A stretch of DNA of 64,000 nt, from assembly GCF_001677475.2 (NCBI RefSeq), contig NZ_CP015229.1. One strand, given 5' to 3'. The first letter of the stretch is position 1. Each line of letters begins with the position of its first letter. The notes under the pieces are model-generated. The model saw only the letters and a list, made by a program, of their open reading frames with translations. It was not told the origin of the DNA and searched no databases. Below are positions 21,229 through 21,459 of this stretch, in pieces. The stretch is from Escherichia coli (GTDB lineage: Bacteria; Pseudomonadota; Gammaproteobacteria; Enterobacterales; Enterobacteriaceae). A program made the position numbers and the translations under genes.

Positions 21229-21459
21229 CTGTTCACCACTGTTCACCCTGTCATAAATGTCTTTTATATCAGTACATTATAGGGTGAACAGTTATTTGTG
21301 AACTGTTCACCAAACTATTCACTGTTCACCTTTTTGATTATTTATTGAGCTTTAAGGGTGAACAGTGGTGAACAGTTGGTGAATAGTTTTTGTGAAACTG
21401 TTCACCCCTTAACATCATGAATAAAAAGGGAAAATAGCAAAAGGTGAACAGGTGAAGAG
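21229..21459. repeat. replication origin: ~10 iterons of CTGTTCACC/GGTGAACAG in both orientations with AT-rich spacers
   Basis: Copies at 21229, 21239, 21283, 21304, 21322, 21357, 21367, 21378 (degenerate), 21398, 21443; the octamer TGTTCACC is the P4 type I iteron as I recall it. Confidence 0.7.

Follow-up and report, generated by a model that had tools for sequence, protein, structure and literature searches.

A dyad-symmetric iteron array downstream of pri-rep as the probable replication origin of an Escherichia coli PICI, and its likeness to the P4 origin

The repeat array at positions 21229-21459 of the analyzed window, a 64-kb stretch of Escherichia coli DNA, is very probably the vegetative replication origin of a phage-inducible chromosomal island (PICI) of ~11 kb integrated at tRNA-Pro. 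This putative ori comprises 12 iteron sites that are dyad-symmetric about ~21344.5 and lies directly downstream of the gene for the initiator Pri-Rep (pri-rep, 19410-21215, + strand, 601 aa). The stop codon of pri-rep ends at 21215, and the first repeat begins 14 bp on, at 21229. An origin was also what the initial annotation of this region had proposed, and it is still the best reading of the repeat cluster.

Nine of the 12 sites are exact CTGTTCACC/GGTGAACAG copies, with the 9-mer CTGTTCACC on the + strand at 21229, 21239, 21303, 21322 and 21398 and on the - strand at 21283, 21357, 21367 and 21443. The remaining three are degenerate, with one mismatch at 21378 and at 21451 (both - strand) and two mismatches at 21315 (+ strand); a further copy at 21297 (- strand, two mismatches) is doubtful. 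The window contains 11 copies of the octamer TGTTCACC, compared with 1.9 expected from shuffled sequences (0 of 100 shuffles reached 11), and 9 of the 11 fall within 21230-21450 (222 bp). The other two are solitary, at 1726 and 20642, and no second iteron cluster was found in the 64 kb. Iterons are spaced by 10 bp at 21229/21239 and 21357/21367, and by 11 bp from 21367 to 21378. GC content over 21200-21500 is 30-37%, against about 50-55% in the flanks, and the 300-bp stretch of the array ranks in the bottom 0.3% for stability among 300-bp windows of the 64 kb. Two outer AT-rich spacers lie between convergent iterons (21248-21282 on the left, 21407-21442 on the right), and a central AT-rich spacer of 26 bp, TTTTTGATTATTTATTGAGCTTTAAG (21331-21356), sits on the dyad axis with three convergent iterons on either side. 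The initial annotation had described about ten copies in both orientations, partly at 10-bp spacing and interspersed with AT-rich stretches; all of this holds, and the boundaries it gave coincide exactly with the first and last repeats.

None of the listed open reading frames of at least 50 aa lies inside the array. A noncoding RNA at this place was considered and rejected, as an Rfam search returned the tRNA as its sole match in the island and nothing in the array. Scans of the array for DnaA boxes, the IHF consensus, GATC and oriC 13-mers found none, and the absence of DnaA boxes, IHF sites and GATC fits firing driven by the initiator itself. Classical iteron-plasmid origins of the RepA/pi type have direct iterons of 17-22 bp, DnaA boxes and a Rep protein of the RepA/WH1-WH2 kind. 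The array is not of this type, because its iterons are 9-10 bp long and occur in both orientations, DnaA and IHF sites are lacking, and the initiator is a helicase.

The array closely resembles the origin of satellite phage P4. In the P4 reference sequence (GenBank X51522), an ‘ori type 1 repeat’ is annotated at six places in ori and at ten in crr; we checked it in the P4 sequence and found it to be TGTTCACC, which bears out the identification in the initial annotation. A literature search for this octamer, with the original P4 papers outside its reach, returned unrelated papers only. With BLASTN, window positions 21356-21413 align to P4 ori 9309-9367 at 81%. The right half-module of the array (21357-21459, + strand), consisting of sites 21357-, 21367-, 21378- (degenerate), 21398+, 21443- and 21451- (degenerate), has offsets of 0, 10, 21, 42, 86 and 94 with orientations - - - + - -, and is colinear with P4 ori, where the offsets are 0, 10, 21, 43, 86 and 96 with the same orientations. 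The left half-module (21229-21330, + strand), consisting of sites 21229+, 21239+, 21283-, 21303+, 21315+ (degenerate) and 21322+, shows the P4 ori layout in reverse complement; taken from the opposite strand, its offsets are 0, 7, 19, 40, 83 and 93, again with the P4 ori orientations. When the twelve sites are paired from the outside in, all six pairs share an axis at 21343.5-21345, so that the symmetry is good to about 1 bp and the origin can be described as an inverted pair of P4-ori-like modules. Each half-module has its own AT-rich spacer of ~35 bp, and the pair surrounds the 26-bp AT-rich center.

P4 ori thus shares with each half of the array the identical octamer as well as six sites in the same order and orientation and with the same spacing. 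It differs in having a single six-site module together with three type 2 repeats, whereas the window has two such modules joined in inverted orientation. P4 also has a second element, crr, located 4.5 kb from ori, while no crr was seen in the window; instead of a pair of separate cis elements there is a single composite cluster. The comparison with P4 ori/crr suggested in the initial annotation therefore comes out in favor of the ori layout, but for one composite origin and not for an ori-crr pair.

Origins downstream of pri-rep have already been described in PICIs (Fillol-Salom et al. 2018, ISME J, PMC6092414; here and below as given in the accessible part of that paper). According to the same source, the rep-ori segment of EcCICFT073 keeps a temperature-sensitive plasmid replicating; mutation of rep abolishes this replication and deletion of ori reduces it (PMC6092414). 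The array has the layout of a PICI origin, with six sites on either side of a 26-bp AT-rich center and two outer AT-rich spacers. EcCICFT073 is the one PICI for which replication driven by pri-rep plus ori, with induction by a helper phage, has been demonstrated, and its iterons and DNA-binding domain differ from those of the window. In the origins of SaPIs and Gram-positive PICIs, too, initiator specificity is matched to iteron type (PMC6092414, accessible part). Their sequences are unrelated to the window, and Pri and Rep are often separate proteins in those elements.

The array could in principle be a crr-like cis-acting enhancer, with replication starting at another, unrecognised site; we consider this very improbable. 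P4 replication needs crr in addition to ori, and crr is an auxiliary element, not a start site. The argument for such a role comes from position and composition: in P4 it is crr, and not ori, that occupies the place directly 3' of the initiator gene alpha, its type 1 iterons, like those of the array, point both ways and surround AT-rich DNA, and each of its units shares with the array the succession of an iteron, an AT spacer of ~35 bp and two inverted iterons. However, P4 crr is built from two direct 120-bp repeats with a site pattern unlike that of the array, which matches P4 ori one-to-one. BLASTN selects ori as well, the 64 kb hold no second cluster that could serve as the start site, and in EcCICFT073 the equivalent segment together with rep suffices for plasmid replication (PMC6092414, accessible part).

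A role in gene regulation has to be weighed separately. The array may possibly serve both as origin and as operator; that it is mainly an operator array through which Pri-Rep or another island protein controls its own operon, or ssb and the capsid genes further downstream, without firing, is very improbable. Iteron-binding initiators often autoregulate, which counts for an operator, as does the location of the array between two gene blocks of one rightward operon and that of P4 ori upstream of the sid gene. Yet between 21000 and 21700 we found no sigma-70-like promoter on the + strand and no terminator, with nothing exceeding shuffle expectation, and 12 strictly dyad-symmetric sites with three AT-rich spacers go far beyond what an operator needs. 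In EcCICFT073, moreover, efficient replication requires the homologous region (PMC6092414, accessible part).

The reading of the array as an origin also draws on the protein encoded next to it, which was identified through Pfam and through its similarity to P4 alpha and to PDB 1KA8. Pfam places D5_N at residues 158-287 of Pri-Rep, DUF5906 (the SF3 helicase core) at 321-429 and Pox_D5 at 492-587, the C-terminal winged-helix origin-binding domain being taken as 492-589. Over alpha residues 313-776, the protein and P4 alpha share 49% identity, with 50% in the helicase (D5_N/SF3), and its residues 493-589 match 1KA8, the winged-helix origin-binding domain of P4 (E=2e-24, 48% identity). P4 alpha has the domain order DnaG-type primase, SF3 helicase, winged helix (PMC2777425; PMC4234260), and it binds the origin repeats through the winged-helix domain (PMC4234260; PMC2777425; both as secondary citations); for type 1 iterons in particular, binding by alpha is taken from these citations and from the GenBank annotation. 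Two characteristics of a P4 replicon are accordingly present in the window: a D5-type SF3 helicase joined to a C-terminal winged-helix origin-binding domain, and clustered type 1 iterons TGTTCACC in nine exact copies.

The N-terminal part of Pri-Rep (~130 aa, 19410-19805, + strand) is different. It gives no alignment to alpha residues 1-312, the primase part, and its first 130 residues have no Pfam or NCBIfam match; hhalign of this domain against alpha 1-314 gave a probability of 0.25%, which is no signal. An AlphaFold model of residues 1-132 has a pLDDT of 90 and is read as a Toprim-like fold without a Zn ribbon. Mapped by eye and not by structural alignment, the catalytic Glu of EGYATA corresponds to an invariant Ala in Pri-Rep (FAGSDAW; TEVIIFAGSDAW), and in the same by-eye alignment there is neither a DxD nor the canonical E...DxD signature. 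A DnaG-type primase domain with Zn ribbon and EGYATA Toprim is therefore absent, and where P4 alpha has such a domain Pri-Rep has a PICI-specific domain of 130 aa. The initial annotation had called the gene a primase/helicase gene and inferred a P4-alpha-type replication module. The module stands as far as the helicase and winged helix are concerned, without the alpha primase domain, and the ‘primase’ label is, judged from sequence, unsupported, though such an activity may be possible.

Conservation among related islands was assessed with five TGTTCACC-type origins, from the window, an O157:H7 island, two O-serogroup islands and the induced element vB_KppS-Ant. Pairwise identity is 88.6% in iteron columns versus 59.2% in spacer columns (Mann-Whitney p=9e-12). 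Of 5,426 complete E. coli genomes, 670 (~12%) carry a homologue of the origin region. That the array is a functionless cluster of repeats arisen by chance or slippage, or the relic of a dead origin, is extremely improbable given this spread and the selective conservation of iterons over spacers; pri-rep is also intact with its 601 codons, and the symmetry is precise to about 1 bp. What could suggest decay is that the adjoining ssb-like gene is truncated and that the exact mosaic of the island is absent from the 5,426 complete genomes, where the best match has 87% coverage at 94.7% identity.

Among the published E. coli PICIs, EcCIRM13514 of strain O145:H28 RM13514 (PMC6092414, accessible part) comes closest in its replication region. 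Its origin has nine exact TGTTCACC in a 12-13-site layout 3' of pri-rep, as in the window, with spacers ~28% diverged from those of the window. The Pri-Rep of this island (WP_000833603.1) is 86% identical overall, with 93% in the helicase and 88% in the winged helix, and together with the downstream region it is identical to the Pri-Rep and origin of one of the compared loci (L006). EcCIRM13514 is integrated at yicC-dinD with another integrase, in contrast to the tRNA-Pro/yejM-narP site of the window.

EcCICFT073, which we located at NC_004431 1377930-~1388700, is colinear with the window island (int, alpA, DUF4222, pri-rep, ori, small ORF, ssb, capsid, decoration). The position of its origin and the dyad layout of the sites are the same, but every iteron is TGTCTACC and not TGTTCACC, and its Pri-Rep is 48% identical to that of the window overall, with 69% in the N-terminal part, 46% in the helicase and 33% in the winged helix. 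The EcCICFT073 replication module is a different specificity allele. EcCIATCC25922 is likewise colinear, shares the tRNA-Pro site with the window and keeps the dyad layout, with TGTCTACC at every site; as in EcCICFT073, its winged helix is 33% and its N-terminal domain 69% identical to the window protein. In all four islands (window, EcCICFT073, EcCIATCC25922 and EcCIRM13514), the origin lies directly 3' of pri-rep. A third type is found in EcCI042 (E. coli 042; locus L010, 5925-7325), where an N-terminal domain with 106 of 125 residues identical (85%) is joined to a RepA-family helicase and followed by downstream repeats AAGTGAGG.

The Toprim-like N-terminal domain of ~125 aa is thus the constant part of PICI Pri-Reps across differing helicase and iteron types. 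Its partners are a P4-alpha-type SF3 helicase in the window and RM13514, a diverged SF3 helicase in CFT073 and a RepA/AAA_25 protein in EcCI042, each of which has its own iteron. The DUF4222 gene and the 81-aa ORF that flank pri-rep/ori are 67-88% identical across the three iteron types, which argues that these small genes are not the specificity determinant. Iteron type tracks only the helicase/DNA-binding part of Pri-Rep. A search for winged-helix residues that follow iteron type singled out no specificity patch: 85 positions are common to the TGTTCACC-type proteins and different in CFT073, and no patch can be isolated since these are evenly spread over the helicase and DNA-binding domain. 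As islands sharing an integrase carry different replication cassettes, cassette exchange is indicated.

One of the compared TGTTCACC-type elements, deposited as ‘Escherichia phage vB_KppS-Ant’ (LR881103.1), is a 16.5-kb ‘induced prophage’ with its TGTTCACC origin at 11700-11960. It carries terminase, portal, capsid and connector genes along with int/alpA/pri-rep, and a gene annotated as tail tape measure is the only tail gene annotated in it. Despite its deposition as a phage, it resembles a capsid-forming PICI.

The element that hosts the array is a Gram-negative PICI of ~11 kb at tRNA-Pro, of the EcCICFT073/EcCIRM13514 family, and not a P4-like satellite. Its size within the 10-15 kb range, att site, int and alpA, rightward genes and helper-type cos, and the absence of tail and lysis genes, are those of a PICI. 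The tRNA-Pro gene (15540-15616) is followed by the integrase gene (15807-17066, + strand; PHROG integrase, E=2e-71), whose product is identical to the EcCIATCC25922 integrase at 373 of 413 residues, both islands being at the yejM-tRNA-Pro-narP site. An alpA-like regulator/excisionase gene (17566-17772, + strand; PHROG 66 and 2790) has the position of alpA in EcCICFT073. The full gene order is int, AlpA-like, DUF4222, pri-rep, ori, small ORF, ssb-like, major head, decoration, a second AlpA-like gene, small-terminase homologue and PerC-like. Downstream genes match lambda-like major head, decoration and small-terminase PHROGs, and at 24172-24183 (+ strand) an exact copy of the lambda cosN 12-mer, GGGCGGCGACCT, is embedded in lambda-like cos flanks, apart from the iterons and followed by the small-terminase homologue (24305-24859). 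The lambda-type packaging parts noted in the initial annotation are thus present, and from the cosN and its flanks the island should be packaged by a helper of the lambda/phi80 type. P4, in contrast, uses P2 by means of sid, delta and psu; neither these genes nor a P2-type cos were found in the island, which has the lambda 12-mer as its cos, along with lambda-type terS and capsid genes. Satellites have a packaging site, and repeats can be terminase-binding sites, but we dismiss the idea that the array is the cos/pac recognition site of the island, as the iterons match the binding site of the initiator and no terminase site, and the exact lambda cosN is at 24172-24183, upstream of the small-terminase homologue.

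Several other features of the island were recorded. The 3' end of tRNA-Pro recurs as a 17-bp direct repeat, CTCTCGTGCCGACCAAA, at 15602-15618 and 26597-26613, which brackets the island and whose two copies probably mark attL and attR. Directly upstream of int (15736-15795), TTAGTTATACG occurs four times, twice direct and twice inverted, with two diverged copies near the right end at about 26520-26550; these resemble arm-type integrase sites such as those of P4 attP. For the tRNA-Pro site, the published att core, TTTGTAGTTATACG, has only an approximate match, at 15736, and corresponds to the TTAGTTATACG repeats and not to the tRNA repeat. Two tandem copies of the 20-bp AAAACAGTGGGTACCGTTTT, each internally palindromic, lie directly upstream of alpA (17461-17500) and could be a regulator-binding site for island induction. 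The ssb-like ORF (21745-22044) encodes 99 aa compared with 136-149 aa in related PICIs, diverges past residue ~88 and has no acidic C-terminal tail. It is probably frameshifted, and with this gene truncated the element may be partly decayed. A second AlpA/excisionase-like gene (23732-24115; PHROG 2790, E=2e-48) lies between the decoration gene and cos/terS, where EcCICFT073 has an unannotated 137-aa ORF, and might be part of a packaging-redirection module. The cos flanks (24160-24215) include the lambda-like downstream sequence TTGCGGATTTTCGCTATTTATGA, and cosN is ~120 bp upstream of the small-terminase homologue. The ORF at 25681-26052 resembles PerC-type activators (PHROG 994 and 10396), an accessory virulence regulator typical of E. 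coli PICIs. At the noncoding right end of the island, 26164-26209 is a perfect (GGCT)x11.5 microsatellite that may be variable in length.

For the array as origin we propose the following mechanism. A helper phage would induce the alpA-controlled rightward operon, from which Pri-Rep would be made. Its C-terminal winged helix would bind the 9-10-bp iterons (A/C)CTGTTCACC, with neighboring iterons placed on one face of the helix by the 10-bp spacing, and the two mirror-image six-site modules would deliver protomers in opposite orientations around the AT-rich spacers. The D5-type SF3 domains would then assemble into hexamers, probably as a head-to-head pair, melt one of the AT-rich spacers and unwind the DNA bidirectionally. 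Primers would probably come from host DnaG, or else from a putative activity of the N-terminal Toprim-like domain. The central spacer (21331-21356) is a candidate site for melting and helicase loading. Of all 30-mers in the origin, that with the lowest stability falls in the left spacer, at 21253-21282, with a dG of -29.9 kcal/mol (mean over the window -41.8, sd 3.5), and not in the central one. SV40 T antigen and the D5-type mpox E5 are SF3 helicases documented as head-to-head double hexamers on origin DNA (PMC12137749), and such double hexamers fit the dyad symmetry of the array. SV40 large T, papillomavirus E1 and poxvirus D5/E5 likewise combine an SF3 helicase with an origin-binding function and inverted sites flanking an AT-rich element; their DNA-binding domains and sequences are unrelated to those of the window, so that the dyad and double-hexamer model is drawn from a functional analogy.

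As an origin, the array adds little to what is known: PICI origins have been described, one has been validated, and the iteron occurs in ~12% of complete E. coli genomes. The iteron type TGTTCACC is itself already within the described PICI set, since the EcCIRM13514 origin carries nine exact copies. It is the relation to P4 that departs from published accounts. In the accessible part of their text, Fillol-Salom et al. call the Pri-Reps ‘different in sequence’ from alpha, with only ‘distant homology’ (PMC6092414), and according to de Sousa et al., satellite primase-replicases may be analogues rather than homologues. Published statements, in the accessible portions of these sources, also hold that the PICI origin layout is shared with no other replicon, and the degree of identity to P4 is not given in those portions of Fillol-Salom et al. 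and de Sousa et al. Taken on the sequence comparison, the distant-homology and analogue statements are too strong for the window allele. With an identical octamer, the same six-site spacing and helicase/DNA-binding domains of ~49% identity, the link to P4 is closer than the accessible PICI literature says, and this close match opens cross-talk between the two satellite families, both abundant, to direct testing.

Helicase, DNA-binding domain and ori change hands as one cassette among islands with a common integrase, and the iteron always changes with the protein. An annotated ‘primase’ lacking a canonical primase domain likewise turns the priming of PICI DNA synthesis into a testable question. 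More tentatively, the PICI origin class may have arisen from the P4 ori module by inverted duplication and share the recognition code of P4 alpha, a proposal that we regard as possible and rather unlikely. If it is true, the statements on distant or analogous proteins and on a layout found in no other replicon would need revising for the window allele, and the fused inverted pair might replace the ori-crr looping required in P4. Alpha could then act on PICI ori and PICI Pri-Rep on P4 ori/crr, so that cross-firing, titration or exclusion of origins could occur between P4-like satellites and these PICIs, which are both common in E. coli.
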